A program made the position numbers and the translations under genes. A DNA stretch of 64,000 nt from Botryllus schlosseri. Taxonomy: Eukaryota. The first letter of the stretch is position 1; every line of letters begins with the position of its first letter. The stretch is from contig CM119371.1 of the NCBI GenBank assembly GCA_051294905.1, positions 38,504,001-38,568,000 on the forward strand, given 5' to 3'. Of this stretch, positions 3,371 through 39,400 are shown one piece after another. The notes under the pieces are model-generated. The model searched no databases and was not told the DNA's origin. It saw nothing but the letters and a program-made list of their open reading frames with translations.

Positions 3371-3484
3371 ATGAACCAGGAGTCTGCGATCGCAGCGGCT
3401 ACAACGGCGGAAGTCGGAATTACGAGCTCTCGAATCGACCACAAAATGTCCTCCATGAGCTCGCTAGACCTCGAAGATTCGCAG
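3371..3484 (+). CDS. Candidate first coding exon 1a of the DPP6/10-like gene ([38 protein letters not shown])
   Basis: ATG plus 38 open codons ending CAG|GTATGT in phase 0, compatible with the exon-2 acceptor at 26574. Confidence 0.65.
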
Positions 3485-6400
3485 GTATGTATTGCGACTA
3501 GGCTTGTCAAAATCCAGTGGGACATGATCTCACATCCTGGAATGCAGTCGGAAACATTCAATTAAATAGTATATTCTTATTGAAATGAACCAGAATATTT
3601 TCGGCTGACACTCGTCAGGGGTAATCGTCAGCAACTAGCAGAGAATTGGAAAGAACATTGTATATCTTTCCAATTCTCTACTAGTTGCTGACGATTACCC
3701 CTGACGAGTGTCAGCCGAAAATATTCGGGTTCATTTCAATATGAATATACTATTTAATTGTATACTGAAGTTCTGTACCTCCAAGAAGCTTTTCGGAAAC
3801 ATTCGATCCAAAAACATCTCGAACTAATCTGATGTTAAGCGAGAGTAATTTTCTGGATTAAATTTATTTTTCAAGCTTTTGCGAATAAATTCAAGTGACC
3901 TGATTCAATCTTGTGACAGCTCATCAGTGTCACTGCCTTTGAGCCACCCGTCATTTCGAGTCACCGCGAATTTTATCTCGAATCAAGTAATTTCAAAAAT
4001 TTGTTAGTGAAGTCACGCAAATTTTCAAAGTAACTCGAGTGAAGTTAGCACATCTCAGATTATCAGATTGTCAGATTTTGAGTCAATTTTAAGTCATCAA
4101 AGTTTGTGTAGTTTGATTCGAATTTACAAATGCACGTGCACAATTGTATACCGCTTACAACCATGTCGAATACCCAACCTTGGATGCTAAGCCAGATCAG
4201 TGACTCTGGCGAAGTCAAGTCATTCAGAAAAGGTGACTCAAGTTTAGTTACGACTCGAGTGATGCAACCACGTTGTCACACTACAACAAACGGCGACATA
4301 GCGTGGTGGTACGTCACGCAGTCGTGACTTCCCACAGTTGCGGGTTCGAGTCTGATCGAGTTCGACTCCAGAATTACAACCTAAGTGTCGGAGTTTTATC
4401 TTTGCTCCTCCAACACTTGGGTTTGAAACTTGAGTCAACCGCGGTCGGACCTGAGCCTGTAACCCATTGTTCTTGAAGCCGAGGATTATATCACTACGTT
4501 ATGTCGCTCGCTACACGTAAGAAGAGTCTTAAAAAAGCCTAGAAGTGGGTCGTGCTACAAGTCGGCAAATACGGAATCATAATAAAGAATATCGGCCTGG
4601 TGTAAAAGGACCAATGTAGTCGAAACACCATGAAGATGAAACAACAACGCTACAAGTGGGTTTACGTCGGTTTATTAGATGATTTAATGCCGACAATATA
4701 GTGTATAATACAATCTTTGTCATCTTATTTCATTGCGTACTATTCCGCTAGGGGGCGCTAAGAGTCATTTATTATACTACGTCCTCGTTGCGAAGTTCTT
4801 TTAACTCTGTTTTCCCACGAGACATCGCATGGACTTAAACCGGCTGAATAATTCATGTGGTGCACACCCCTCCGAGAATGGTCTTCAATGACTAGTGCGA
4901 TGTAAACCCCAGTATTTTAGAGGAATAAAGGTCACCAATCAACACAAATTAGTTCTTCATCATTCCCGACACGACTGGAAACTTAGAAATCATGAATAGA
5001 TCCGTTTGAAAATCGAGTCCAATTGTAATGATTCATTTTCGGTTGTTTGCGAGAACCGAAAAGATTATTAAATCGACGGAAAATATACTTTTGTTGCTTT
5101 ATTTTCACCGTCGGAACGTAGAACGTAGATGTAGGACGTAGAACATGCACACTGCACAGGGATACGAAGCCTCAAGTTGCCACACTGTAACTATGGCCTA
5201 GTACAATGGTTCTCGACCTTTTTTAGACACGTCCCCCTTTATGATAGTGAAACATTTCGCGCCCCATTATCGTCATATCACAAAATCCAACAGGGATGCT
5301 AGCAACCCCAACAGATTGTTTGATGGCATGGAAGGTTATGACTGTTTATGAGAGAATTCCAAAATATGAAATTCGGTCTATATATAGAGAAACACGGTTA
5401 GGCTTCTTCGCACCCTCTTCAGATGCTTTCGCGCCCCCAAGGTTGAGAACCATTGGTCTAGTAGAAGTAGGAAGTATTTTAGATTACGTGTTACTGGAGG
5501 TCAAGGTTCGCCGACTTTTACATCATAAGTCACTATGATGTAAAATTTAATTAAATATCGTTGTTTTTGGTAGGAAAATCATTTATTTATGTTTTTTCTT
5601 TAAACACTGCCGTGGATGCAGTTCATACAGTGTACCAGTATTCATTAGTAATGCATCAGATTTCGAATGTGGTAGATTATTTTGTGAGATTGCGAAAATT
5701 TGTGGCGCACCGAAAGCTGGCCGATTAGTGTAAGCCTGGTTACCAAAGGTTAACAGACACCGGACTAAACGCAAAGTTCATCGGGCGCAATCGCATCTCA
5801 AACGAAAACAGTTCATTTCATTTCAGCAGTGCTGAATAATTGATATTCGCGGGTCGAATTCGCCCGTGTTTTATCAGAAGCGTACACGCCAGAGTAACAA
5901 TAGTGTCGTTTTGATGTAAACTGTACTTTGCGACTGACGACCGTGACGTTAATGAGCTCGACTCGAAGAAATAAGAGGCTTAATGGACCATTATTGACTG
6001 CATCTATGTTTAAAATAAAGTGGGGGTATCTCAATTATATGTCTTTTTCGAAATACTTAATGTACTACCCCGTATGGTATCAATTAGTCGTTTGGTGAAA
6101 TATGATAATCAGGAGTATATTGTAAATATATGCTTTGAAAATCAATGTATTTACTGTACCATGTATCATAGGGTAGTACTCCCTGGTAACAAAATTATGT
6201 ACCACATTTTTGCACTTTCCTGGTACGATACACGAAAAATCAATCCTGTGCACCCCTATATGATATATCAAGGGGTGGTAAATACCAAAGTAGGCCTCCT
6301 ACTACTACGTTCTCACTGTACACACGTAGCTTAAGCATATATAGAAGCAGTATACTCAAAACGACACGTGGCACTCAAAACGGCACGTGGGTAACTTTTC

Positions 6401-9400
6401 AAATCTTGTATAGAGACCGCAGGCCGCATGCATTCTATATCGAGATAAAATAGACCACATAGTCTGAAAAGCGCATTTCGAAACGTAACGTCGGTACGAC
6501 GCTGCGCTCTCTAAAATGGGCGAAGGGCATAGTTTCCACGAGAGAAATACAACAATATGCAACAAACATATCAGGATCATCATCTCACTTCTATTAGGAA
6601 CTATGAGCGGCGCACGATGACGTACACCGGCGACCAGAGGATCAATATTGGGGTTAGCTAGACACGGTATACGTGCTGGAAAACTAGCTCCCTGTAACGC
6701 TTGATCTCGTGGAAAATGTTGTTTTACAGTGGACAGGTCAAAAATGGACGATACCAATCATGGTTTCTCTAATCAGAATCGAGATGATCAATAGACAGTA
6801 AATGTCAACCATGCAGTAAATTTAGATAACTAGAAAAATAAATTCCTAATGGTCTAATTAAACCAAAGGTGGGCAAACTTTTCAGCCCGCGGGCCGCATT
6901 CAACATTTGAAATCATTCGCGGGCCGCACTATATTGAATATATATATATATATATTGTGAATATTAGCTAAAATGCAATATTTATGTATATAGAGACCGG
7001 GAATTTATGCAGATGATATCTATGTATAAATTTAAAAACAAATCAAACAATAATTTCATGATAACGTACCCGCGTCGGAAACATTGCTAGATTTTTCTAG
7101 CTGGTCATCCTTAATAACCAATTCGGTAAAATTTGGGATGAAAGACCGCTGTGCCGACTTTTAGACGCGGCTGTAAATTTGAATCAATGAGGAACCATCT
7201 GTTCGGAGATTTGCTAATCCTGCCTTTGGCTCACCTCCAAGATGGACAATGCTGACAACATCTTATATACGCTTCTATACAATATAAGCTAATAAAAATA
7301 TATAATACTTCTACACATATTGAGGACATACCTATACCTAACACACACGGGAATCGGTGTCCCAAATACAGTAACAAAAGTAATAAAATTGCTGGAGTTG
7401 CCAATTTTAATTCGCACTCATGATCCGGATTATGGTATTTTCGTTTTGAATTTCTGTGATGTTTACCAACTGAAACCTATGGAAATGCGTGGACCTTGAT
7501 ATCAGGCTACTGCGTCAGCAATAAAAGAAGCATCATAGCAAGACTACATCTTATCATTGTCGTGGGGGGATATATTAAGAAAACGTATTGCCAATTTATA
7601 GCAAAAATTACATTGTTAGTACGCATAATATTTTCTTGGTGCTTTCACGGGTTGCAGAAAACGGTGTTCCGCGCCGCACGCGGCCCGCGGACAGTGGTTT
7701 GCCCACCCCTGAATTAAACGAATTAGAACGTATGGCCGGTAATCTAATCCTAATATAATTTTAAACTGTTTCTATACTCTAATTTTAACTCAAGTCTATT
7801 GTTATCCTGGAAATGCTACAGAATATCTGTGCCGTGCAAAAATGGCCAAGCTTGGTGCACTTGAACATACATTTGTCCTCGACAAGCTTATAAAAATGAG
7901 CTTTGATTTTATATGAACTGTGAACTTGTTTTTTTTGTACATCAATCGAATTAGAAATTTAATCAAATTTCCAAGTTTTTGATCTAATTTTGAAAAGCTG
8001 TATATTTTCTTGTCGTCCAGCTTTTGTGTCACTTTACTATCTCTGATATCCGGGACTCCGTTGTGGCGTGATACAAGTATAGTCCGCCACTGCATGTACA
8101 ATATCGATCGCTTCTCGCGCTGTGACTATTTGGATCTCACCGCATTGCATGGGCGGAAATATGAGCATTATTGATTTATTGGGTTGGCTGTGTAGAGTAT
8201 ACATTACGAGCGTAACGCGAGGAATATGGATATATTAGACTTTTTTAAGGTCGACTCTGCGCCGGACTGTAATTACTGACCGATTGCCGGCAAAACAAGG
8301 TTCTCTAATACGAATCGCATGAGAGGTCGCCAAAGTATAGTTACCGATAGAAATCAAGTAGAAGTAACGCGGAAAATTTATTTACCCAAGACCAAGTGAA
8401 CATGAAGGTTTTAAGACGGTGGTTCTCAACCTATTTGTCTTCGCGAACCCCTTGTGAGCCGTCACAGACCCCCGCAGACCTCAACGTTTTAGTTAAAATT
8501 TAGCTCTATTATCGTGCAACCGTCATCTGTCCTGTGCAAATATCGGCTATAGAATATTGATGAACGGCAACAAAACGACCATTCTTGAAAATATCATCAT
8601 AGCCTACTATTCTGTAATTTCAAAACGAATTATTTGAAAATATGGTTGGCGATACTAAACTTGAGTATTGCTCTCACAACTACATTCATTGCAGTAAAGA
8701 ATTTATTAACTCGAAGACTTTTCGTGTGCCCCTTATCGAGAGTTAACGGCACAATAACAATCATACAGAACGAGATTCAAACAAAAACCAAATTGGCAAA
8801 GTATGACGTAATAATACAATAATAAAATTTTTAACGCTAGGCAAAGTCAGCTGTACCGGTAGTCATAACAAGAGACGAGAGAAAATCAAATTATACAATA
8901 ATACACGGAAGACAACACACAGACAAATAGCGGCATAGCGTAAAAAATTTTATCATTGTGTTATTACTTCATACTTTGCTAATTTGGTTTTGGTTTGAAT
9001 CTCTTTCTGTATGCTTGTTATTGTGCCGTTATCTCTCGATAAGGGGTACACGAAAGTCTTCGAGTTAATAAATTCTTTAATGCAATGAATGTTGTTGTGA
9101 AACAATACTCAAAACGAATTATGTAGGTAAATTTATTGAAATAGACGGTCGTGTCTTGAAATTCCGCGTCGTCAATTTGATATGAACGAAAATCCATTTC
9201 CACAAATATAGGGGATGGTGAATGTGGTAATAACACGCAACACTTCAGACGAGGCCTTTGGGTATGATCGCAACATATATATGACGCCTTCATTGAGAAA
9301 TACATTCTCAGTGAACATATTACGTCCAGCATAGTCATTTCTATCTAGCAGATCATCTTGAAGTTATTCTGGAATAGCGTTTACGTATATCACAGGAAAC

Positions 9401-12400
9401 TATGGATTTTTGCAACCAATTCTGTTACAAAGCCCCAACAAAACATCTCTAAACAGCAAGTTGTTTCTATCAGAAGGCAATAAGAAGTTTGACAATTTAA
9501 TTGAGTTTGCACAGTATAATATTTTATCTCAGACGGCCATTCTGTTTATGTGAGTTATGAAGTTTTAGGACTTATGAAGCGAAACTGACTCGTGATTACT
9601 AATTTCATACATAAAAATTAGGCTATTATCCATTCTTCAAATTTTGATATTTCGCGAACCCCCTGAAGATGCTTCGCGGGTCCCTAAGTGTCCGGGGGCC
9701 CCGGTTGAAAACCACTGTTTTAAGACATGTCAAAACTAATTAAAGAGGAAGTAGTAATGAAGGTATATAACTTACCAATAGTTTCAAAGAATCTGGTCAA
9801 GGGTTTGAACGCACTTATAAGTTAGTCTGAGCTACGGTCTAAGTGAAAAGAGCGTGTATTTCCACTCGTGTACCACCCCTGATATAGGGGTGTGACTATA
9901 CACCCATGGCATACGCAACAACAACCTAACTAAGAATTCTACCGCGGTATTAATCGAGCACAATCGAGCACAATTTTGCATGCATGTATAGAGACGTAGG
10001 AAGTTATGCACGTATTCACGTAGGATTTATGGCCGCGATATAATTCTGAGGTAGGCTCTGTTCTCGTGAACCACCCTCTTCGGCCCTTTAGGTGTGCAAT
10101 TGTGCATACACGGTCTTTTCCTCATGAGTTTGGTAACCTTCCAAACAACAGCTTACATCTTCGCGATAAACTGATGGCACTGCATACAGTGGTAATTTCG
10201 ATTATAAATCAAGTTACCGTGTAACAGATGCGATTCTTTTTTGCCTGACAATAAAATGACGCATACATACCCAAACAATACTATCTACTGCTCAAAGTGT
10301 ACAAAGTCAGTAGTTTTTCCGAACAACTTTCGAGCAGAAGTGGAATTATTCTGAAAACATAACCTTTCGAGTAAGAGTAAGTGTATGGAGATGCGGGTTA
10401 AACCTCTTTGAGTAGGCCTACTTCGAAAAAGCAGACGGACTTCACTAAAATGACAGCCTCTGTGTTCGGTGTGTCAAGCCCGCGTAATTACCCAGTCGAT
10501 TTCTCGTTACCGCCGTAATTACCTCGCAATATCAAGTCGACATTGATGCTTATCCGAAATTAATAATTATTTATTAGAGACGAATCGTATCGGCATTGTG
10601 TGCAGGTTTTGAATCGAGCTGTCCTCGAGTTATTGATCGTATAGTTTTGAATCCGCATCGGATGCGTTTCGTATGTTCTCTATCCATTAAGGATTATATA
10701 TGGGTGTTGTCAGAGACGCGCTGTTGACGGGGAGTATTCCGCTGAGACTTTCACGGTTTCTGATTCCACGGTGAATGAATGTCCAGCAACGTTATGTAGT
10801 GTTGTTCGTGATCACCGGAGGTTGAGGAATGATATGGAAACAGGGACATTTATGGTGCGTGTTTCGATTGAGGACAGCAGGAGTAAAACTGGAATTTGAA
10901 CCAAGCCGGCAGGGTTGTAATCAAGTTGCGAGGACCTTACTTTTATAGTTTTGACTCGAATCTAGGTTAGCAATATTCAAATTCGCCGCCGACTCATATT
11001 CCATGCCGAATCGGAGTGCAGTGGGTCGAGTCTTACTCATATTGTGATGCGTCAGGTTTAAATATCATTTTGAAAACTCTCGGGTGATATCGAGTGCCTC
11101 GCATTCAAAATATACTTATTTTTCTCACTCTTAACATGTTTGTTCTAGCAGATAACGGACAGTTTATGGGTCTATTTTTCAAGTATCGAACCTGATACAC
11201 GATCATGTCACATAGAGCAGTGCTCTTCAACCTTTTTCGACGTGGTACACTGTTTTAACGTGTGCTCAAAACTCGTACACCCCTGTTCATTAGGGGTCTT
11301 CAAAAATGACTTTTTTTCTCAAATCGTACTGGCTACTTGATAAAATTGTTAGGTTACCTAACTTAAGCCTACACACCAAATTTGGTTCAATTCCAACCGG
11401 TAGCCGCATTGCTACGGGAGAAGAAAGTTTCTATTTATTATATAAAATAAATAACGAAAAATTTGAAATTTTACTGTTCACCCATGAAAGTATTAGGTTG
11501 TCTATAAAAACGATGTTATTCAAATTTGGTTCAATTCCGACCAGTAGAAGCGGAGTTAAAAAATTTGGATTTGAATAAAATAGTATTTGGTCACAGAGTC
11601 TATTCGCAGCCAGTTAAGCCGCCCGCCACGCAAATTGGAATTTATTTCGTGTCAGCCCCAAAACAGCATGACATTACGAACGATAATCAACCTAAATGTA
11701 ACAGTATTGGGGAGAGAGCAGGTAAAGTTACTGCTGCAGAAGCGGTAATTCAGATCAGCGATGATAGCAGGCGCACCAGCCTACTGCGTATCAGGCCTGC
11801 CCCACACCACACCAGTGGCGTAGCCAGAGAGGGGCGAAAGGGGCGATCGCCCCCCCCCCCCCAAATTTTTGGAAAATTTTCGTGAAATCAATAGATATAT
11901 TAGAGTATTTTGGGCAGATGAATGCAACCTAAAATTTTTCTTCGCGCTTCGCGCGATTTAGTGTCCGTATATGTCTTGATTTCGTTATCGTTATCCCAAA
12001 AGAAATTTCTTCTGCAAATACCAAATACCGAAATTAGATTTAGCTGCATCTTCAATTATAAGAATACAACAGTACAAGCAGATACACTAGAGTAGCCAGA
12101 GGTCGTTAGATTGATTGAGTCCAGGGTTGTCAGTTCAGTATGGGAGTTGGGGAATGTTAGTTCCGGCAATTTCCGTTCCGGGACACACGAAGACATGTAA
12201 AGTAGGCCACACGCGCTTCCGCAAAGTGACGGTCATAAAACCGACGCATGTATTCAGAAGCCCAATATATATTTTCGGGTGCTTAAATGGCTGGCGCCTA
12301 ATCATCCTGTCCCTGCAATTAGACCCCTCCGACATTAATGCGACTGGCACAGGAAAATATCACCACCCCGTTAAAAAGTGCTGATTTGAAATCGCACGAG

Positions 12401-21400: not shown

Positions 21401-24400
21401 GTAATTGCCAACACGTGTATGCTGCATGTGCTACGAGCTGTTTTGTGCCCATTGTTGTCAGCTGTCTCCAAAATCACCGAAATAATGCAGACAAGAATGA
21501 TTCGTATCGACTTGTGGTGCCGTGAGTTGAGATCGTACAGTAACGAGGACTTTTTAATTATGTTAAAAATGTAACTGGAGATGCCGGGCATCGATCCCGG
21601 TGCCTCACACATGCTAAGCGTGCGCTCTACCACTTGAGCTACATCCCCGACATACTTTCAGGTATTCAAACTCAATCCATTGTTTAGTTGGATAACCGGA
21701 TAAACGTGAAGTGTTACGCGTTAATTATAAATTTATAGCAGTACAATCTCCGGTAACCAATCACTTACAGCCGCGGCGAGTTTTGTTATGATACGACCGC
21801 AGCCCCGTACGAGTACGTAGCGTCATATCCAACAGATCAGAACTAGATATCATGCGTGGGATAGATGATCTTTTGCAGGGGTGGCCAACCTGCGTCCGCA
21901 GGATGAAATTGGTGCGGCCGTCGACATGCAAAATAGAATTTACGAATTGACTGCTGCGATTCAGTGCGAATTTATTTTTCGATTTTAATATAGTTGTGCT
22001 CTTGCAATCGGAGCCACAAAGTACAGATGCGAACAGCAGCGAAAATGCTGCGCCCCATATAGAAATACCAACTTGGAATTGTGTGCTCCTCGCGAATAAA
22101 ATTTGTTTATAGTGCGTTTCCAGCACTCTTACACTGTACCGAGAATCCTGGTGGGAGGTCCATAATATCAACATGCAACTAATGACAAGAATAATAACAA
22201 TTGTGCCACACAAAGATGCGTTCATCATATATAGCTTGCGCTTAATTCCCGAAAACATCCCTCCGTCAACTTTACAGGTGAATCTGATCAGCTGGGCTGA
22301 GAGAGGATACAAATTTGATTGTTATATGTGAAACTACTAACATTAATGACGAAATTCATTCGTGAATATGATAAGATTTTCGCGCTTGGCGCGATCACAG
22401 CGTATCCCATGACTACTGACCTCTCATGATTTCGGTGCGTATAGTATGCCGATATCGAAAGTAGATTAGTTCGCAGAGTTTACCGGAAATGGAATTGGAC
22501 AGTTAATATTGGTATTTCGCATCCAGTTAGTTCATTACGGATATGCCCAGGAATGCGGCCGTGAATAGCTAAAAGGTTGGCCACCCCTGATCTTGTGGTT
22601 AGTGAAATAGTGTTCAAATTTGGATACACTGTGTATTGTAAAGGAAAACCATCGCCTAACAGCTACCAAGTTACAGAAAAATAAGATATATACAAGTCCT
22701 AACTATCCTGACGTGCTGATACGCTTCGTACACCCGGCGTAAATATGATTGTGCAAAGCAAATCCTCAAAATAAAATGGACGATGCTAAATCGTGTTCAG
22801 AAGTGCGCACGCCAACATCCTGCCTACACTGTAAAAAATAAAAACCTCGATTTACCGCGAAATGTTTGGAAGCACGGTAGCCAGACATTTCGTGGTAATC
22901 TAACATTACCGTTAGTCAATGTAAATTTAACTTACACTCGTCCGGTAATCTCACTTTACACGCCAGACTGTAATGTTACAGTCTCCTCCGCTATATCTAA
23001 TCTACATGTTGTCCTGTACATTTGCGATCGAGACTGTCATTTTACCGCCTACCTACCTACATGCTGTCCCTGTAAATCAGGATTACATACCAGCTTGTAA
23101 ATTCACGTACATCCATACCTATCGCAAAGCAACCCGATGCAAAAATATCGCAACATTTTCTTCACATCCCCAAAACGACATTGGAACTAACTGTATATTC
23201 ATTCATGATATCACGATGAAGTGGTATCGATGGAAAAATATTGCTGCTGGAGGTCTAATTCTTCTTTAGGAGACATGCAGTAACACGAGTGGTCTCAAGA
23301 AAACGTGAATTAATTCCACCACCGGCCAAACTTCCAATTGTTTCTTTTTCTCGTTCTCATTCCTTCTGTGTAAGTAGTATCTTGCAGTTCCACTAAAAAT
23401 AATTCATGCGTAAGTCGCTATATAAAGCAAAGTTCCTAACCTGGACAGTGGACATGACATTATAAAGACTAAGACAAATAGGCTAACAAAAATATAACAT
23501 GTTTTGAAGTACCGGTACTGGCACATTGTGTGATGACGGCTCCGCCTTTTACATGACATAGCAGAGATTCATGACTTTATCTCTGTATTGAAGCAAAAGG
23601 TTCCTAATTTAAGGTGGCATGTGTGGCAAACAAATCCAGCAGTGGATGAAAACATATCTATGCTACGGCCCGAAAATGACATTACCAAGCCAACAGTTTC
23701 AACTCCTCCGCAGCGGAGTATGTGGTCACTATGTATATAAGTCGACAAATATCCCAAAATAGAACAGAGAATGCGGCGAATGAAATATATCAATCATGAA
23801 ATCTAAGTCATCGAGGGCTGGTGCGCAGAGTCAGATATTCACGGTAACAAATACTATGTAGTACTGTATTACCTTTTAAGATGCGTATTCCATTCAGCAT
23901 TCCTAGGAATCTTCAACGATCGTGTCCACTTTCTTCAAGCACAACAAGCTTCGCACCACCCTTTGCTCAAATCTCACTAATGGCCACTGGCCAGACGACC
24001 CTCGAACGATTTCGAAGTAAACGGTATTCATCCGCTGACACATGACACCAATAATATTTACTGGCCACGTTATAATGTTTGATCTGGGTCGTTTTTTCCA
24101 TACAGAAACATTTATCATAGCATATAGTCCCTTTTTTCATCTAATTTCGTATAAATTGATATATGTTCCATGTGTTGTTCACTACTTACTGTACTTACGT
24201 AACCAGACGCTGCTTGTGATGTCACAGTTGTGCGTTGGTTGTTTACTACGAATCTCAGAAAAAGCAGTCACCTAATGTAACCGATTACAGGTCGCCTTGT
24301 CCGCCATTAACAAATGGTCAGCTGAGCATGCGGTGCTGATATTTCTAGTTCCCCCGAGCAATATTATACATCCTGAACTAATTTTCTAACTTATCAGCCT

Positions 24401-27400
24401 TATTCGTGACAACGAATGTAACCAGCGAGACTGGCCGTACAGCCATTGCCTTATAATATAATATGGCTACGGTGTACCACATTAGCTACGATTGTCAGTT
24501 ATTTCTTGTACCCTACTAAGCTTAAATTGATACTAGGGCCAACAGTTTCGGTATGACAGACCGCAGTCTCGCAAACGAGGTTCAATCAGGTCAAGTCACC
24601 TCTAGAATGATATATCAGTAACATTCAGTTCTACGTATACATTGGCTGCAGCGATTTTGAAGCTAATCAATTTTGCCAATAGCCCGGTAAACTGCAGTAA
24701 CGAGTAACTGTCAGTAATTATGCGAAGAAATTCTGGTAACTTACTTTACAGCTATATTAAGGTAATATTACATATTAAAATGTAAAATGACAAGCTACGC
24801 ACAGTAATTGGCTGCGACCGGTAATTTGTGGTAAAATTTACAGAGATTTCCCCGTAAATCTACCAGATTTTTTACAGTGTACATTTTAGCTGAATATCGG
24901 CTGTATCGAATAATCAAAATGTGGTCGCATTTGTCGTATATTCCAGTATCAAATAGGATTTAGTAGGTAATGGTGTCAATGTAGCAATTCGTGGAATTGG
25001 AAACGTGTAGCAACGTGGAAAGAAAAACACATCGTCTAAATGATCACGTAAATTATAGTGTCCTCGATTCAAGTGAACTCACGCACCTTAGACCCAAAGA
25101 AAAGCTCGTCCTTGAATCACCCCCTGAATATTAAGTTAGAACAGGTTTAAAGTCAGGAATTATGACAGTGACAAACACAATTTATGAATAATCCTGTTTG
25201 TACGAGACATTTTCGTCTGAGACCATTCAATCTTCCATTTTTGTACTTAAGAATCGACTTTGATCAAAATCTGACAACCGGTTAAGTGCATCTGTACGCC
25301 TGCATTATGAGAATTTTTATGCCGGTGACGTAATATTTTATGACGTGATTGTTGATGCACATTATTCTTGTCAATTCTCTAATAGTTGTTGACCAATACC
25401 GTCGAAGAATGTCAGAAAAATTATTCGGAGGTCAAGCACCAAGGATATAAACTAATACATACGTTGTCTTTGCCGCAATGCATTATAAAAAATAACTGGA
25501 GATGCCGGGCATCGATCCCGGTGCCTCACACATGCTAAGCGTGCGCTCTACCACTTGAGCTACATCCCCCACGACCAAGATCGCGGATACCATCATTACT
25601 AATTTGTGGTAGAGTGGTGAATCAAACAGATTTGGAGTGTTATCAGCATCAGACAACAACACAGCCCTCGACAACTCATCTCATACGATCGCCGTCAATT
25701 TAAATCGAAGGGAATGAAAGCCTCGATTGCGACAGCTGTCTGATTTGAGAGAACTGGAAATTATACAGTTCTAGCTGAGATTTTAGATATATATTGTTGA
25801 ATTTGTGCTATCACGGAACGACTTATATAACGTAGCTAATTGATATACATTGCATACAGTACACGGTATGATTGTGTATATCTCCGTATGTACGCTTTGT
25901 AAGTATAAATGAAAATTATGATTCGTCTAGGCGAATTCCGTATGTTTAACATACAAGTCCATGTCACTAACACGAAACGAAGGAGATATATTTGCTTGAT
26001 TCTTCTTGATTTACTCTTATAGACATGGTGCACAAATCATCCGTCATTTTCTTGAAATTTTTTTCGGACCGAAACATCACAAGACCGCGATATAATGGAA
26101 AGATAGGAGGGTTTCTAAACGACTTGCAGTAGACTGACAGTTTGAACAATATCAGCTGCACTGCATCATACATCTCTTCATTACAGAAAAAAAAACAATG
26201 GAATAGCATATTTAGATTGAAATGAACCCGAATATTTTCGGCTGACACTCGTCAGGGGTCAGCAACTTGGGGAAAAGAACATTGTGTCTCAACAATGGCA
26301 TCAAAAATATGACGTCACCGGCGATCGTTGATATACAATTTTCTTTCTTCACTCTACTAGTTGCTGACGATTACCCCCGACGAGTGTCAACCGAAAATAT
26401 TCGGGTTTATTTCAATATGAATATACTCTTCAATTGTATATTGAAGTTGTGTACCTCCAAAAAGCTCTTGCAAATGAAAAACCTATATACAAACGAAATT
26501 TGCTGTATAGTTGCTGTTGAACTAACACATCGTTTGCATGTTTCCGCAAATGAAACATTGTACAAAATTGCAGGAACTTGTTGGCAGCAATCCGGAAGAG
26601 CGGAACTGGACCGGAATCACCATTTCGTTGGGAGTCATCTTGACCGTCATCGGACTCGTGGTGCTGTCCGTGATTATACTGACGCCGGGTAAGAATTATT
26701 ATGAATGACTGACCTCACTCGACTAAAAATAGTTTTACAACTTGTCTTAATTACAGATAGGGTTGCATTTAAAATCAAACTTATAAAACAAACACGTTTG
26801 AAACATTGCCCTTGTTTAGAACCTGTCTTTGTTGTTGTTTTTGTGTTTTGTTAGCCATATCATCAGGAGTTCATATGAACGACTGTGCTAAAATGTATAT
26901 CGTCAGCATGAGTTCAAAATTTCAAACCATAATCCGATTTGTCTACCGGTCTACATTAAGTTGTTGTTAATCTCGTCGTTGTGTTTCAAACAAAAAAAAA
27001 CATGGTTTGTATCACTTGTCTACAAGACGTGAATGTATTCCTAGAAACAGGGACGACGAATTCATGAAATCACTGATGCTTGACAGAATTTCGAATTACT
27101 CCTAATATATTTTACATATGTGAGCTGTTTTGTGAATATGATACCGGTTCTTGCATGGATCCCGAAGTATTTCGATATGATGTTTTTCTACATAACCTCT
27201 AATGTTACATTTATTGGTAATTGACAGATTTGGCTCAATTTTTATTTGCATCGATAACCTATCTATTGACTTCTGAATGTAAAATTCCTATGTTAAATTC
27301 AGAAACGCGACTCACCGTCGTACCGAATGTGACTCTCTCGGCTATCGTGACGAAACCGTGGACTATCGCCGACGCGCAATGGGTTGGGAGTCATCTCATG

Positions 27401-33400: not shown

Positions 33401-36400
33401 AGTTAGTTGAATAATTTCCAACAGATTAACACGCGAAAAGAAAAGCAATGTGTGACGTGCCACTTCTCTTGGATCGGAGAAATATCCGGCGAACCGTGGA
33501 AGAAAATCGAGTATCGATGCGATTATTTTGAAGCAAGCTTCGGGGAATCCACGGAATGGTTCTACGCCAAGTGCCTAGGTGCGAGAATTGATTCGTCGTA
33601 TTTTTATTTGATAAAGCGAGAATAGGGAAATGCATGTCTCATATATTGCTATATGTCTTATAAGCGCATGTTCTTGTGACTAACAAACAAAATGGTGACC
33701 AGCCATGAAGTACTTGCTGACAGGGGTTTGATTTTAAAGAACCTCCTCTTCTACAAAACATATTTTCGACAAAACCACTTTCATTGTCCGTTTTGGAAAT
33801 TTTTAATGTAAAAAGTATTGGAATTGGTTTGTATCACTTTGATGAATGTGACCGTTATATCAACTTTGCAGAATTTAACCTTCACCTAGTAATCTGAATA
33901 TATATATCGAAATTGCATATATCAGTGCAGTGATTTATCATTTTACGTTAGCCGCATAAATGCATCTCGCAATTTTCAAAGTAGCCAACACCGATTGACT
34001 GCTATGTTTGTTAGGTGTACCCCTCAACAAATCTTTTGTACTTTAGTAATTTATATATCTTCATTTTCGACTTCCCCTTGAATTAGTTTTGACAAGTAGT
34101 TCTACTTGTAATTGCGTTGAAATGTTCTGCGAATAGCATATCCTTATACTTTAGTATCAACGCCGACAACTTTGACCACGTCTTGTGTCAATTACCCTAT
34201 AGGCCTAATCACCTGAGTTCCATCCGAGTGATATAGTAGATATAAATATATCAAGATCTATTTCCTATATAACGACAGTCTCCACGTCGCGGGTTTCATT
34301 CAAAGTGAAAGTTAAAAAGCGTTTCGTCAATATCAATTGAATCTTGCAGGCCCTGGTTTTCCGTTTGGAGGAATCGCAAAACTCAACGATACCGCCGTGC
34401 CTGCTACGATACGCGTCATGCAACCGACTGACCTCACCATTCAAAACATGGTGCTACCGAATCAGTCAAATCACGTCATCAGAACTGCATCCGGACACGG
34501 TAATAAATACCAACAGCAGAAGGCGGCGTTTCATAAATCAGCTAATCCTAGTGGCGTGTATTATCATCAGAGGAGGCCGGTAACGCAGTACTTTTTCGCA
34601 GTAATGAAATATAAGTTATCTATTCCAGTTGAATTCTAAAAGCGTGCCACGTCAGCACTCGGCCAAATCCATTTTTTCAGCTACATCCTGAACATACTTT
34701 GGGGACCTTTAATTTTAAATTCGCGTGAGGTATTTTCAGAACGTTTGCCTCCAATACTTGTAAAAGGGTACAACGTTGTTACATTATCCTACATCTATGG
34801 TTTCATTTAAAACAAACGGTGTTTTAAACTACTTTGTTTGAAACATGTTTTAAACATTGTTTTTAATAAAGGCCTTTAAAAAAATTGTGTTTTTTTAAAG
34901 TTGTAAAAGCATGCCATATTTGTGTAAATACTTTACAAAAAAACATGTTTTATGAGCCTACGGACAATTACCACCCGATGTAGCCGACGTTTATCGATAT
35001 GGGATGGTTGGAACCCTCAAAATACTCGTTTAAACAGCAATAGTACATATATTTCGTGAAAGGAGCTATTTTTACCCTATATTGTCAACTGTCAATGTCA
35101 ATCCACTATGACGTCTCAATTAAATATTCGTGACGTCATGACTTTTAAAAAGCCGTAAAAAACATGTTTTAAATTAGGGTATTGTTTTAAATATGTTTGT
35201 TTTAGATAGATTTTTGTTTTAAATGCAACCCTACCTATATCTGCCTGTGTAGCAATATGCTACTGACTGTTTCGTCCTGGAGTCGATTTGTAGCACTATG
35301 ATAACAGAGTCTTGCGAATCGCATCAATTCAATTCAATCAAAATATATGTCGGATTGTCCGTGGAACGTGGTCTTGAAAACATCTTTAGAATATTTCCTC
35401 ATTAACCTATGGATATTCCACCGGCAGAACTAAAGTTGTTAGTTTTGGCGAAAGTTTATTCTGATGAAGAAATTTTTGACGAAAATGTACAACTGGTCTT
35501 ACGTTACGACATCATGATGAGCGGTGAAAAGTACATAGATTACGGTAGTTCTGGATAGTATCGACGACCACGTTTAGGGGAACGTTTACGTATTACTGCT
35601 AGAGCTCGACAAAATGGAATTGCACAAAAACTGGAGATGCCGGGCATCGATCCCGGTGCCTCACACATGCTAAGCGTGCGCTCTACCACTTGAGCTACAT
35701 CCCCGATGATAACGAGTCATTATACGCTTTATGTATCTGGATGTAGCTACAAGTGCCCCTCATTATCAATGACAAGCGATAGCACTCATGAGGCGAATGA
35801 GGTTGCAACCTGATAGTTGCCTGCATTTATTGAGTTGTTGTTATATTAGTGTTGATGGTTCAACATCGATATTATCATTGATCATTTAACACCATTGCGA
35901 AGTTATTATTTATTATATTCATTTTGCTGCCGACTTAAATAACAAACCACGCTCGTTTTAGGTTGACGCGGATTGTATGGCGAATAAAAATCCAGACATC
36001 CATATAGGGTTTCTCAGATTGTAAGGTTCAATCGTTTGGTTTTACGCCCGGTCTGCCCTTTTCAGTCTTTTGCTATAGCGATAGAGTTGATTAACTGGAC
36101 GTTGATCAATCAATCCTATTATAAACTATAGGGTACGGTCCGATTTGAATAATCCGTCACATAGATTCTATTTTCAGATATCAGGATAAAAGCATTACTA
36201 CCAGCGAGCGTACACGCCGGAGAAAGGCCAGTCGTGTTCTTCAAGTAAATATATACATATCAGTATATGTTATTCTGATTTATACTAGGACGACGGAACC
36301 AAATTAACAGACCCATTACCATCAGTCAGCTACGTAAAAATTATTTCTCGCATTATCTTGCTTATGCATTATGCATTATCTTACTATCGAAAAGCAACAA

Positions 36401-39400
36401 TGTTAAAACATTAACTGTCTACTATAAATTCTACGTACGCGGCCATAAATGATACAATGTTATATCAACAAGCCTTATAATATGCATGCAATATTCAATT
36501 TTGGGGATAAGGCCCTACTAATTGCGTGGGCATGTTCCATAGTCACTTTCAAGTGGCGCGGTATACACCAATACGGTAGGCCTATATAGTGTCAACTATT
36601 TTATCTTCGCTCTATTTGCGATTGGTGCATCTATCTTCGTACATTGGTAATGTAATCACAAAACCAGTCTATCCAAGGCTTGTTATCTAGCGATAATATG
36701 CGAGCGCAGTAATTGAACATGCTTTGAATGTTAAAGCCTAAAATTGTACTGTGCTATGCAAGTCAACCGCTATACGGGAATAAAATAAAGTATATCAGAA
36801 TGGTGTAAATGACCATTGCATCTCAAAACACCATGAATACAACAAACAACGTTTTGTCATCGTGCTGTGTTGTTGTCACGTGGTCAGATAGTACATGATG
36901 GTGTTGGATTATTTACACAACGCGCCGCAGTTGCGTTATTGACCATTGTATTGCCATCCGATGCTGACAACACTCCAAATTAATCAAATTCCATCACTTG
37001 ACTACAATATCCATAGAGTTTATATCGCTGGGAAACTCTCGGGGATGTAGCTCAAGTGGTAGAGCGCACGCTTAGCATGTGTGAGGCACCGGGATCGATG
37101 CCCGGCATCTCCAGCTTTTACTTTCTGAATTAAATTGATGGTAAATGCAAAGGGATGCAATATATTACGAAATCATCAGGAATAAACAGGATTAGGGCAT
37201 AGATTTCAAACAAAATAAGGCTGTTTCATTCACAATACAAATGATTCAAATCAATCATCTGGCCCAAAAGCCAGCTTTGTGGATGATCCACTTAAATTGG
37301 TACGATGAACGTATGTGCATAGCAATGACCACGCGGTTCGGAGTGCTTAAAGTCATATGCAGAACCGTGACAGCACTTCGTCATCCCCCAAAACGTTGGT
37401 CTTGGGCCCCATAGGATGATAAACCGAACTTATGGGGGGCATCGCCCCCTCAGGCTACACGTTTTTTGCCGCTACTGATCATCCACATTGGGTGCTCATT
37501 TAGTGTGTACGCTTGTTTCGCCTAAACGAACGAAGCGCGAAAAACTTCTATAATTCATGATTGAATCGGTCAATATGATTGGGATTGCATATATATTCCT
37601 ATCAATTTTTATCCCCTCTCTGCTTACGTAATCAAGTTTACTGGTATAGCTGAGTGAGGTGTGTTGGAAAAGGTAGGACCCCTAAGTAAGATTTAAACAT
37701 CTTTGGGCGGACCCGTTCGGTTGGTATAATGACTTCGTTACATGATGCTATTTCGTGACCTCCTATATGCTATGTCAAAAGATATTGAAATCACCAAAAC
37801 GTAGTAAACTAAAAGACGTAGGCCCACACGCGATTTCAAATTGGTATTTCTTTGCTCGCAAACAATATTGCCTCGATCCTTTTCGGCCCAGCTCTTCTCG
37901 CTGCTGATCATTCTGCCACACTTCTCGGAGTCGCATGTTATATGGCCTATAATTTTAAATGTCTTGGTGCGTCGTGGCGCGGTAATGGCCGACGCCGAAG
38001 TGCCCTTTTCTATAAATCATGCGTATTTTGTTGGGGGAAGGGTACCCAATAATCAAGATATTTGACAGCATTAAATCGAGCGCAGGGCGAAAAACTTTTT
38101 GAACGAATTTTTGAAACATTTCCAAAAAAATACTCTATGATTTATTGCAATTCACGATATAATTTGGGGCCCCCTTCGAGCTCGAGCCCCCCGCAATTTG
38201 GGGGTTTGGGGTGTGGCAGTTACGGTCCTGGTTATATGAAACGATATTTTGGGCAAAACTGCATACTTTTCCAACCATGAAAATGTAAATATGCGGCGTT
38301 ACTTCCGCCTATACTTGAGTAGCAATACTGCCTACTTTTTGCACCCTGGTATGTAATCGATCTGAACAATTTCAGGGGTGACATCGGGTCTCAAACGGTT
38401 ACAGAAAAGTTCGATGTCGACCTTGCAACATACATCTCCAAGACAGTCGGTGCTATCGCTGTGTTCGTCGACGGAGCAGGTACGCTATTTAGGTATCTCC
38501 ATGTATATTTTATTTTATATTTAACGCTCTGTGATGCGATGATATTGCAGGTTCCGGTAAAAGAGGAGAGCTACTGCTCCGGGAATCGTTGAAAAAGTTA
38601 GGTGCTCCGGAAATAGAAGATATGGAGACTGTTGTCAGGTAGAACATAGACTATTCCGTTGTGCATTAATTAAGTAGGCCTATATAATATGCTTGGCAAT
38701 GCTTCGACATTTGTTACCAATTGATTTGTCTGTTGGGTTTGACAAAATGTTGGCTGCATGGAAGGATGTAGTATATATACTGAGCTCGATTACTGACTAT
38801 CGCACCTGTGATCACCACTTTTTGTAACAGTTCCTCTATTTTTGGAAATAAACTGCGATCAGCAATTCAGTATTTAAGACTCGAGTGTCGAAAATAATTT
38901 GAAATCGTGTGCCTATGGATCACATCAGAAGATGTTGAACTCCATTCACTTCCTTTAGTGATAAAAGTAGTCGGCCGTGGTACTGAAGTAGAAATAAATT
39001 AAGTAATGCCTTTAATTTATAGTCGATTATAAGTCGCGAAGTCGAAGTTTTCAATAGGTGTCGAAACCACTAGATATGGAAGTATAGAAGGGGTCCGAAA
39101 AATATTAACACCCTTCCAATGATTGGATATGAATCAAATGCGTCAATTGTAATGAACACAATGCAGTGGGTTCTTGCTTCATGCACTATCTCAAATCCCA
39201 AAAGGTGACAGGCCTACACGAAAACAGAACCCGCTAGCTCTGGGCTATATGTTCCTTGTTCATATAGAGACTGGTGCAATTGACTGTTTTTCAGCCTTCG
39301 GAAGGGCGTGAAATCACAAATAGGTACTTGGAAGTACAGTTTACCTGATACCCTGCGATAAGGTGAATTTAGTGAAAACATGTTTTCGTTAACAGTATAC

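Follow-up and report, generated by a model that had tools for sequence, protein, structure and literature searches.

Hammerheads in Penelope-like elements and pseudoknotted hammerheads

The closest described relatives of the motif considered here are the minimal hammerhead ribozymes of Penelope-like elements (PLEs) (Cervera and De la Pena 2014, PMC4209133). These are type I motifs that lie in the terminal repeat or 3′ region of a PLE with reverse transcriptase (RT) and GIY-YIG domains, are present in thousands of copies per genome, occur as pairs 100-700 bp apart on opposite strands, and have a very small palindromic helix III, from which a dimer is deduced; they also include a U3-A8 variant of the core, found about 1,300 times in Schistosoma mansoni. 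All these features are shared by a hammerhead-like motif that was found in a 64,000-nucleotide stretch of the Botryllus schlosseri genome (assembly GCA_051294905.1, contig CM119371.1, positions 38,504,001 to 38,568,000 of the forward strand), hereafter called the window, in whose own coordinates all positions are given. The motif is located at 8706-8753 on the minus strand, within an insertion at 8634-9108. The consensus of these PLE hammerheads has a long hairpin helix II of 6-8 bp, a bulged base after A9, and a short helix I of 4-5 bp, whereas here stem II is a single pair, and the 5′ flank provides the rest of helix II in trans. With only 9 nt between A9 and G12, there is no 6-8 bp helix II hairpin with an unpaired base between A9 and G10.1. 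The palindromic positions 15.2-16.2 plus loop 3, which characterize the dimer mode of PLE hammerheads, are found.

Pseudoknots are reported in about 40% of hammerheads, in all three types, and one tested example combines a 6-bp pseudoknot with a stem II of one pair; disruption of this pseudoknot lowered activity more than 100-fold (Perreault et al. 2011, PMC3088659). This example and the Rfam family RF03152 (RAGATH-1) share with the window motif a single G-C stem II, a 7-nt loop, and a Watson-Crick pseudoknot of about 6 bp that replaces the loop-loop contact. They differ from it in being bacterial, phage, or metagenomic and in having a stable stem III, and the 2011 example is of type II. In addition, RF03152 possesses an upstream hairpin before helix I, while the partner strand is here a single strand ending 1 nt before helix I, in a motif without stem III; a literature search found no published description of the RAGATH-1 structure. 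Permuted hammerheads of the SGC and CSG types (Eckert et al. 2023, PMC10085705) likewise hold core helices as pseudoknots, with a very short linker between helices I and II. A non-circular permutation of that kind was considered for the window motif and rejected: the block order is still C-G-S (type I), and only the 10.2-10.7 strand is displaced.

Natural U3-A8 covariation has been observed in several hammerheads (PMC3088659), so the U3-A8 core as such is not new. An earlier note on this DNA had presented the core as a non-canonical U3-A8 variant; the compensatory pair is real, but it constitutes no new kind, having been reported in 2011 (PMC3088659) and 2014 (PMC4209133). U3-A8 (PMC3088659) and U4C (in a viroid) are each documented singly, whereas both occur together here, fixed in an amplified retroelement subfamily. 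A full-text search on U3-A8 hammerheads found PMC4209133 alone, and one on U4C hammerheads found PMC3088659 alone. A C4 variant is not mentioned in the accessible part of PMC4209133, and neither the combination of U3-A8 with U4C nor this build inside PLEs was found in print; the supplements of PMC4209133 and PMC8557442, or Lunse 2017, may show the build.

Structure and identity of the insertion

The insertion is 475 bp long (8634-9108) and is made of two 5′-truncated PLE 3′ ends, placed head to head and each reading outwards. It is directly adjoined on both sides by an identical 14-mer, TCAAAACGAATTAT at 8620-8633 and its right copy at 9109-9122. As the first 3 nt (TCA) of this 14-mer could be element sequence on the right side, the target-site duplication is taken as 11-14 bp. 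The two ends form a long inverted repeat (8674-9100), in which the arms 8720-8842 and 8933-9055 are 91% complementary and the stretches 8674-8721 and 9053-9100 are 96% complementary. Between the arms lie 90 nt (8843-8932) that contain the junction of the two truncated copies; the left copy extends slightly further inward, since 8850-8860, read as its reverse complement, matches CTGACTTTGCC, which longer copies have upstream. The copies have 3′ ends of two kinds, a short one (...GAAAGCAATA) and one about 32-36 nt longer (...CCATATTTTCA(A)). The left arm of the window has the long form, with a 32-nt tail extension (8634-8665, minus strand) at the 3′ end of this copy only, and the right arm has the short form.

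The genome that was searched comprises 495 Mb in 219 contigs, and the arm is a dispersed repeat in it, with at least 41 matches listed at 92-100% identity, of 1666 first-look candidates. Among the matches listed, many are minus/plus pairs 0.5-5 kb apart, and single arms occur too. In two longer copies (L031 and L032), the open reading frames (ORFs) contain RVT_1 (E 2.8e-07 and 3.7e-10), and the RT ORF has 2816 homologues, many with PF00078. Its C-terminus is 54% identical over 199 aa to the homologue P0008, of which the aligned residues 575-613 pass PF01541 (GIY-YIG); a direct Pfam search of the window family's own C-terminus gave no GIY-YIG match, this domain being reached through homology only. 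The motif is placed about 200 nt beyond the ORF, in the same sense. An RT followed by GIY-YIG is the defining arrangement of PLEs.

PLE insertions are described as having an inverted, 5′-truncated partner, a one-sided tail of 30-40 bp, and a target duplication, and tandem copies are also described (Craig et al., PMC8557442). The 5′ truncation, the inverted truncated partner, and the tail at one end are all found in the window insertion and its relatives. The PLE identity thus relies on the RT and GIY-YIG ORF of the longer copies, on the motif lying in the same sense, and on an insertion layout that matches PMC8557442. Judged from its sequence, the region is a dead PLE insertion, with arms of about 230-250 nt each, flanked by an 11-14 bp target duplication. 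The motif is a retroelement tail rather than a free-standing ribozyme gene. The recognition of its family, called family B below, as a PLE 3′ end inserted as an inverted truncated pair goes beyond the earlier note.

Anatomy of the motif

Read on the minus strand from 8753 to 8706, the motif begins with the hexamer UGUGCC (8753-8748) and a single G (8747), followed by the helix I 5′ strand UUAACUC (8746-8740) and the core strand UCGAUAA (8739-8733; U3 C4 G5 A6 U7 A8 A9). Stem II (8724-8732) consists of the single pair G10.1-C11.1, formed by G (8732) and C (8724), which closes the 7-nt loop GGGCACA (8731-8725). The motif is completed by GAAA (8723-8720), AGUCU-UC (8719-8713), and the helix I 3′ strand GAGUUAA (8712-8706). 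G12 A13 A14, the helix III strand AAGUCUU, and C17 are thus found at 8713-8723, with the predicted cut at 8713/8712. This string had been described exactly in this way before, and reading it again confirmed the geometry. All 48 nt are equal to the subfamily majority. The hexamer pairs with GGCACA (8730-8725) and would thereby continue stem II, and the helix I strands form 7/7 pairs. The topology is that of a type I hammerhead-like motif, with a 7-bp helix I and a quasi-palindromic helix III strand. By nearest-neighbour prediction, the pseudoknot helix has an energy of -8.5 kcal/mol and helix I one of -5.3, and AAGUCUU pairs with itself, around a central U-U, at -1.5.

Compared with the canonical core (C3 U4 G5 A6 N7 G8 A9/G12 A13 A14/A15.1-U16.1/H17), the motif deviates at U3, C4, and A8, while G5, A6, A9, G12-A14, A15.1, U16.1, and C17 are all kept. 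The change at positions 3 and 8 is compensatory and documented, and U4C is a true deviation. An alternative core register, in which C3 would be the last C of helix I and a C would be bulged, was rejected by eye: it leaves G1.1 unpaired and puts a G at position 17.

The mirror motif of the right arm (9022-9068, plus strand), which the earlier note had mentioned, is present but decayed at three places: one pair of helix I is broken (UUAUCUC), one pair of the loop has become G-U (GGGUACA), and one A of GAAAA has been lost (GAAA-GUCUUC).

Genomic census and covariation of the pseudoknot

With 12,371 genomic occurrences of the 20-nt skeleton YYGANRAG-N7-CGAAA and 461 of the reversed pattern, the motif is beyond chance. 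In 2017, Lunse, Weinberg and Breaker (RNA Biol 14:1499) reportedly put PLE variants at about 150,000. The earlier expectation that the motif would escape searches proved right with regard to the Rfam hammerhead models. At gathering score, Rfam reports no hammerhead in the whole window, just five tRNAs, and at E<=10 a search of 7500-10500 gave no hammerhead, only two unrelated weak matches. When ten family representatives were searched by E-value, the sole hammerhead match was a weak one, between a member of family E (L064) and RF03152 RAGATH-1.

The families share one geometry and differ in their core and pseudoknot strands (the latter given as upstream hexamer/loop positions 2-7). Family B, that of the window motif (8706-9068), has the core UCGAUAA and the pseudoknot UGUGCC/GGCACA, and family C has UUGAAAA and UGUGCC/GGCACC; a further type, represented by L106, has UUGAUAA and CGUGUC/GGCACG. 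Sister families of identical geometry carry the canonical CUGANGA: CUGACGA with GCUGAC/GUCAGC in family A (the same as in the earlier note), CUGAUGA with ACUAAC/GUUAGU in family E, and CUGAAGA with ACUGGC/GCCAGU in family H. Family E2 has CUGAUAA with ACUGAC/GUCAGU. Family A is the most abundant one and retains a perfect core. All families have a palindromic or almost palindromic helix III strand: AAUAUU in A, AAGCUU in A2, E, and E2, AAGUCUU in B and C, and AAGCCUU in G.

To follow the pseudoknot across families, 114 distinct instances in the fetched DNA were reduced to 65 with at least four contiguous helix I pairs, a selection blind to the pseudoknot, and these were clustered into 20 families. 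On average, 4.6 of the 6 positions are paired between the hexamer and loop positions 2-7 when the strands are in register, compared with 1.75-3.05 when they are shifted by 1-5 nt, and none of 5000 permutations of the hexamers among the 20 families reaches the observed pairing. In an alignment of 21 rows (the 20 families plus E2, which was chosen knowing that its strands pair), all six pseudoknot pairs change on both sides. Here 77.8% of the cells are paired, against 29-45% with the partner slid, and the covariation score is reached by 0/500 shuffles. The G and C of stem II are invariant in 21/21 aligned representatives, an invariance partly built into the search pattern. Helix I is formed by 7/7 pairs in the window copy, with a sequence that differs from family to family. 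A check of all three helices gives a paired helix I, a stem II of one invariant pair plus a covarying 6-bp pseudoknot, and, for helix III, only a self-complementary strand. The pseudoknot is supported by this cross-family covariation. The "full" covariation between families A and B that the earlier note had advanced was overstated, because only three of the six pairs differ (G-C/U-A, C-G/G-C, and A-U/C-G) and three are identical; it is across families that the covariation holds.

Variation and history of the core

Through an anchor outside the ribozyme, 33 distinct genomic copies of family B were located, and UCGAUAA is the core of 32 of them. This consensus check shows that UCGAUAA is the fixed state of the subfamily and not the decay of one copy. 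The lone remaining copy carries UUGAUAA, which is the state that CpG decay at C4-G5 would yield. In nearly all B copies, the rest of the motif is intact, the other catalytic positions included. In the genome, the skeleton with UUGANAA gives 1,473 matches (reversed control: 76), that with CUGANAA 572 (49), that with UUGANGA 482 (43), and that with UCGANAA 284 (54), the other 9,560 matches being CUGANGA and the three C4 classes together. The UCGANAA matches are mostly of the family B subfamily, and this core is essentially limited to it in this genome. An exact B-type 20-mer has 136 genome occurrences, with 75 UC and 25 UU forms among the first 100 listed. The flanks of the UU copies (20 fetched and three met earlier) differ from those of B throughout, except in L015 and L135.

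In the tree, the 28 UCGAUAA sequences group together in a single shallow clade with a mean pairwise identity of 0.94. This clade branches from within the long-branched UUGAUAA copies (24 sequences, on average 0.69 identical) and the UUGAAAA family. UUGANAA is far more frequent than UCGANAA, and the UC clade is nested in UU copies. These data point to U3-A8 as the state of the lineage (UUGAWAA in the wider lineage) and to U4C as a young change, probably with a single origin in the master copy behind the youngest burst. The earlier note had counted U4C as an extra deviation; it is indeed a true one, but a derived change of one young subfamily in a lineage that otherwise has U4.

Proposed fold and mode of action

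In the proposed fold, G10.1-C11.1 would be the first pair of stem II, and the loop strand GGCACA would lead directly into C11.1. The hexamer UGUGCC would supply the missing 10.2-10.7 strand, which would yield a stacked helix II of 7 bp, a length that falls within the range given for the hairpin helix II of PLE hammerheads (Cervera and De la Pena, PMC4209133). As in classical H-type pseudoknots, the groove would be spanned by the single loop base that follows G10.1. The far ends of helices I and II would be held together by the 1-nt linker from the hexamer to helix I, a role usually played by the loop-loop contact. Helix III would be formed only between two copies, in a tandem or read-through transcript; the weak self-pairing of AAGUCUU fits this, and the palindromic or almost palindromic strands of every family match the dimer mode of PLE hammerheads (PMC4209133). 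Cleavage of such a dimer would occur after C17. The lineage would work with the U3-A8 core pair, and the C4 added by the youngest subfamily would weaken cleavage. U4C is thus expected to be a weakening change rather than a new catalytic solution.

Does the C4 form cleave?

U4 is part of the conserved U-turn, and C4 removes the uridine of that turn. In a comprehensive scan of single and double mutants of a type III hammerhead, activity was low whenever the CUGA turn was altered, with the C3G/G8C swap as the one exception (PMC9901934). A natural viroid variant with U4C has considerably lower activity in vitro and retains infectivity in vivo (Ambros and Flores 1998, as cited in PMC3088659). Metazoan PLE hammerheads, even when dimeric, have very low in vitro activity (PMC4209133); PLE clades that lack hammerheads multiply successfully, and it has been suggested that hammerheads may merely parasitize PLEs (Craig et al., PMC8557442).

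RNA reads from four runs (one bulk and three single-cell) were placed on window 3400-9200 at 90% likeness. On the B arms, the depth is about 1-9, with 2-9 on the B copy, and no pile of read ends is listed at 8712/8713, in data of low depth and of a library type unsuited to cleavage ends. Family A at 3594-3787 is by far the most heavily covered stretch, with a depth of 300-1000, compared with 0-30 around it, likewise without a pile of ends in these libraries; to the left of 3594 the depth falls, which a preference of the reads for the partner arm, the better preserved of the two, can account for. At 8738, which corresponds to position 4, the U form is found in 59/78 reads (9/9, 15/21, 17/25, and 18/23 in the four runs), and these reads may stem from the far commoner U4 relatives, because a likeness of 90% admits them.

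Very probably, the region is best explained as a dead PLE insertion with a pseudoknot-built type I hammerhead motif, in which U3-A8 is the state of the lineage and the young U4C weakens cleavage. Several observations weigh against this explanation. The Rfam hammerhead models give no match to the B copy (L103) at E<=10, and the alignment of L064 to RF03152, although full-length, scores 20.0 bits for a gathering score of 56.3 (E 2.3). The covariation rows are related sequences of one genome, their skeleton was preset by the search pattern, and E2 was added knowingly. The tree is midpoint-rooted, with no outgroup, and the direction from U4 to C4 is therefore read from its shape. The core itself is not uniformly kept in the lineage. 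A sister PLE family (family G, 95-100% identity) has C3 opposite A8, a broken pair, in 20/20 copies sampled by flank similarity (twenty 46-nt stretches, chosen regardless of core). A multi-copy PLE family with U3-G8 (UUGAUGA, loop GGUCAUA; e.g., L118) exists in the same lineage as B. Since families with C3/A8 and U3-G8 cores have been amplified too, core integrity may be under no selection, or under relaxed constraint, here. The U3-G8 wobble family could also be an intermediate between C-G and U-A.

A much more remote explanation would make the mirrored arms the terminal inverted repeat of a DNA transposon, such as a miniature inverted-repeat transposable element (MITE), with a chance likeness to hammerheads. 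Mirrored arms and a flanking direct repeat do look MITE-like, but the longer copies encode RT and GIY-YIG and no transposase, the 3′ ends vary in length, and solitary arms occur; moreover, the skeleton is 27-fold above its reversed control, and its helices covary across families. This explanation is extremely improbable and is ruled out for practical purposes. A stronger challenge comes from the idea that the motif is a hammerhead-derived relic, in which cleavage was lost or never needed and the structure either is kept for another role, e.g., recognition by the element's own RT, or rides along. Three young families with imperfect cores (B with C4, G with C3/A8 in all copies sampled, and the U3-G8 family) agree with it, as do the feeble in vitro activity of metazoan PLE hammerheads, even dimeric (PMC4209133), and their suggested parasitism of PLEs (PMC8557442). 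The motif is also more alike across families than its flanks (0.70, compared with 0.56 and 0.60), which fits selection on structure and not necessarily on catalysis, but this contrast is inflated, because the search pattern fixed 12 of the 48 motif positions. The relic idea is harder to reconcile with the retention of all catalytic positions other than 3, 4, and 8, including G12, G5, and C17, and with the perfect core of family A. It is a serious contender that falls somewhat short of an even chance.

At the other end, UCGAUAA could be a fully working alternative core, with C4 tolerated or compensated beside the U-A 3-8 pair and cleavage as good as that of its relatives. The youngest subfamily is the one with C4, and it was amplified with C4 fixed (32/33), the remaining motif is intact in nearly all copies, and the viroid with U4C keeps enough activity in vivo for infectivity (cited in PMC3088659). 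Set against this are the considerable loss of in vitro activity caused by U4C (PMC3088659), the low activity of every single CUGA-turn change in the mutational scan (PMC9901934), and the near-restriction of UCGANAA to one subfamily in this genome; besides, amplification is no proof of cleavage, as the C3/A8 family was amplified and hammerhead-less PLE clades thrive (PMC8557442). A fully working core is therefore doubtful, and it seems just as doubtful that the C4 form would cleave at a rate comparable to that of its U4 relatives. Slightly less likely again is the more specific proposal that U3-C4...A8 (UCGANAA) is a working core, one that can do without the U-turn uridine specifically when the neighbouring 3-8 pair is U-A and the 6-bp pseudoknot clamps the scaffold; if true, it would explain the fixation of C4 in a recently amplified retroelement subfamily.

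Significance

This one animal-sized genome contains about 12,000 hammerhead-type motifs with a one-pair stem II that are unreported by the Rfam models. In the accessible literature, this build is documented for bacterial, phage, and metagenomic hammerheads, and not for PLEs. A natural series is offered on one scaffold, with C3-G8, U3-G8, C3/A8, U3-A8, and U3-A8 plus C4, each form being the fixed state of a separate retroelement family whose relative age is known. Two questions therefore become testable, namely whether PLE hammerheads must cut for the element to spread, and how much core change the pseudoknot scaffold tolerates.

Additional features and neighbouring observations

An AAUAAA at 8702-8707 (minus strand) overlaps the end of helix I; families B, C, D, E, E2, and A2 all have this hexamer there. 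About 36 nt further on, at the distance expected of a poly(A) site, comes the short 3′ end of the element, and AAUAAA may thus serve as a poly(A) signal. Downstream of the motif, about 17 nt past helix I, a small hairpin (ACUGCA-AUGAA-UGUAGU) is located at 8679-8695 on the minus strand. By reading, other families (C, E, and H) hold different yet still self-complementary sequences at this site, and the hairpin is possibly a 3′-end recognition element.

Family G, whose core was sampled as described above (loci L071 and L144-L163), is located on contig C68 at 13.6-51.9 kb and at 40 other places, partly as a tandem array with a period of about 3.8 kb. Family A also occurs in the window, at 3545-3790, again as a head-to-head pair of truncated PLE tails, with the CUGACGA core and AAUAUU as helix III strand. 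Another dispersed repeat (...GGTGGTTCTCAACC...TTCGCGAACCCC...) has directly oriented copies to either side of the PLE insertion, at 8397-8460 and 9651-9726; RNA reads map to it, and pieces of it adjoin PLE tails in L142 and L143.

The five tRNA matches of the window are found at 21576-21648, 25497-25569, and 35632-35704 on the minus strand, and at 37041-37113 and 40199-40271 on the plus strand. Four of them have the same score, 53.2 bits, pointing to a tRNA gene that is repeated or to a repeat derived from a tRNA.

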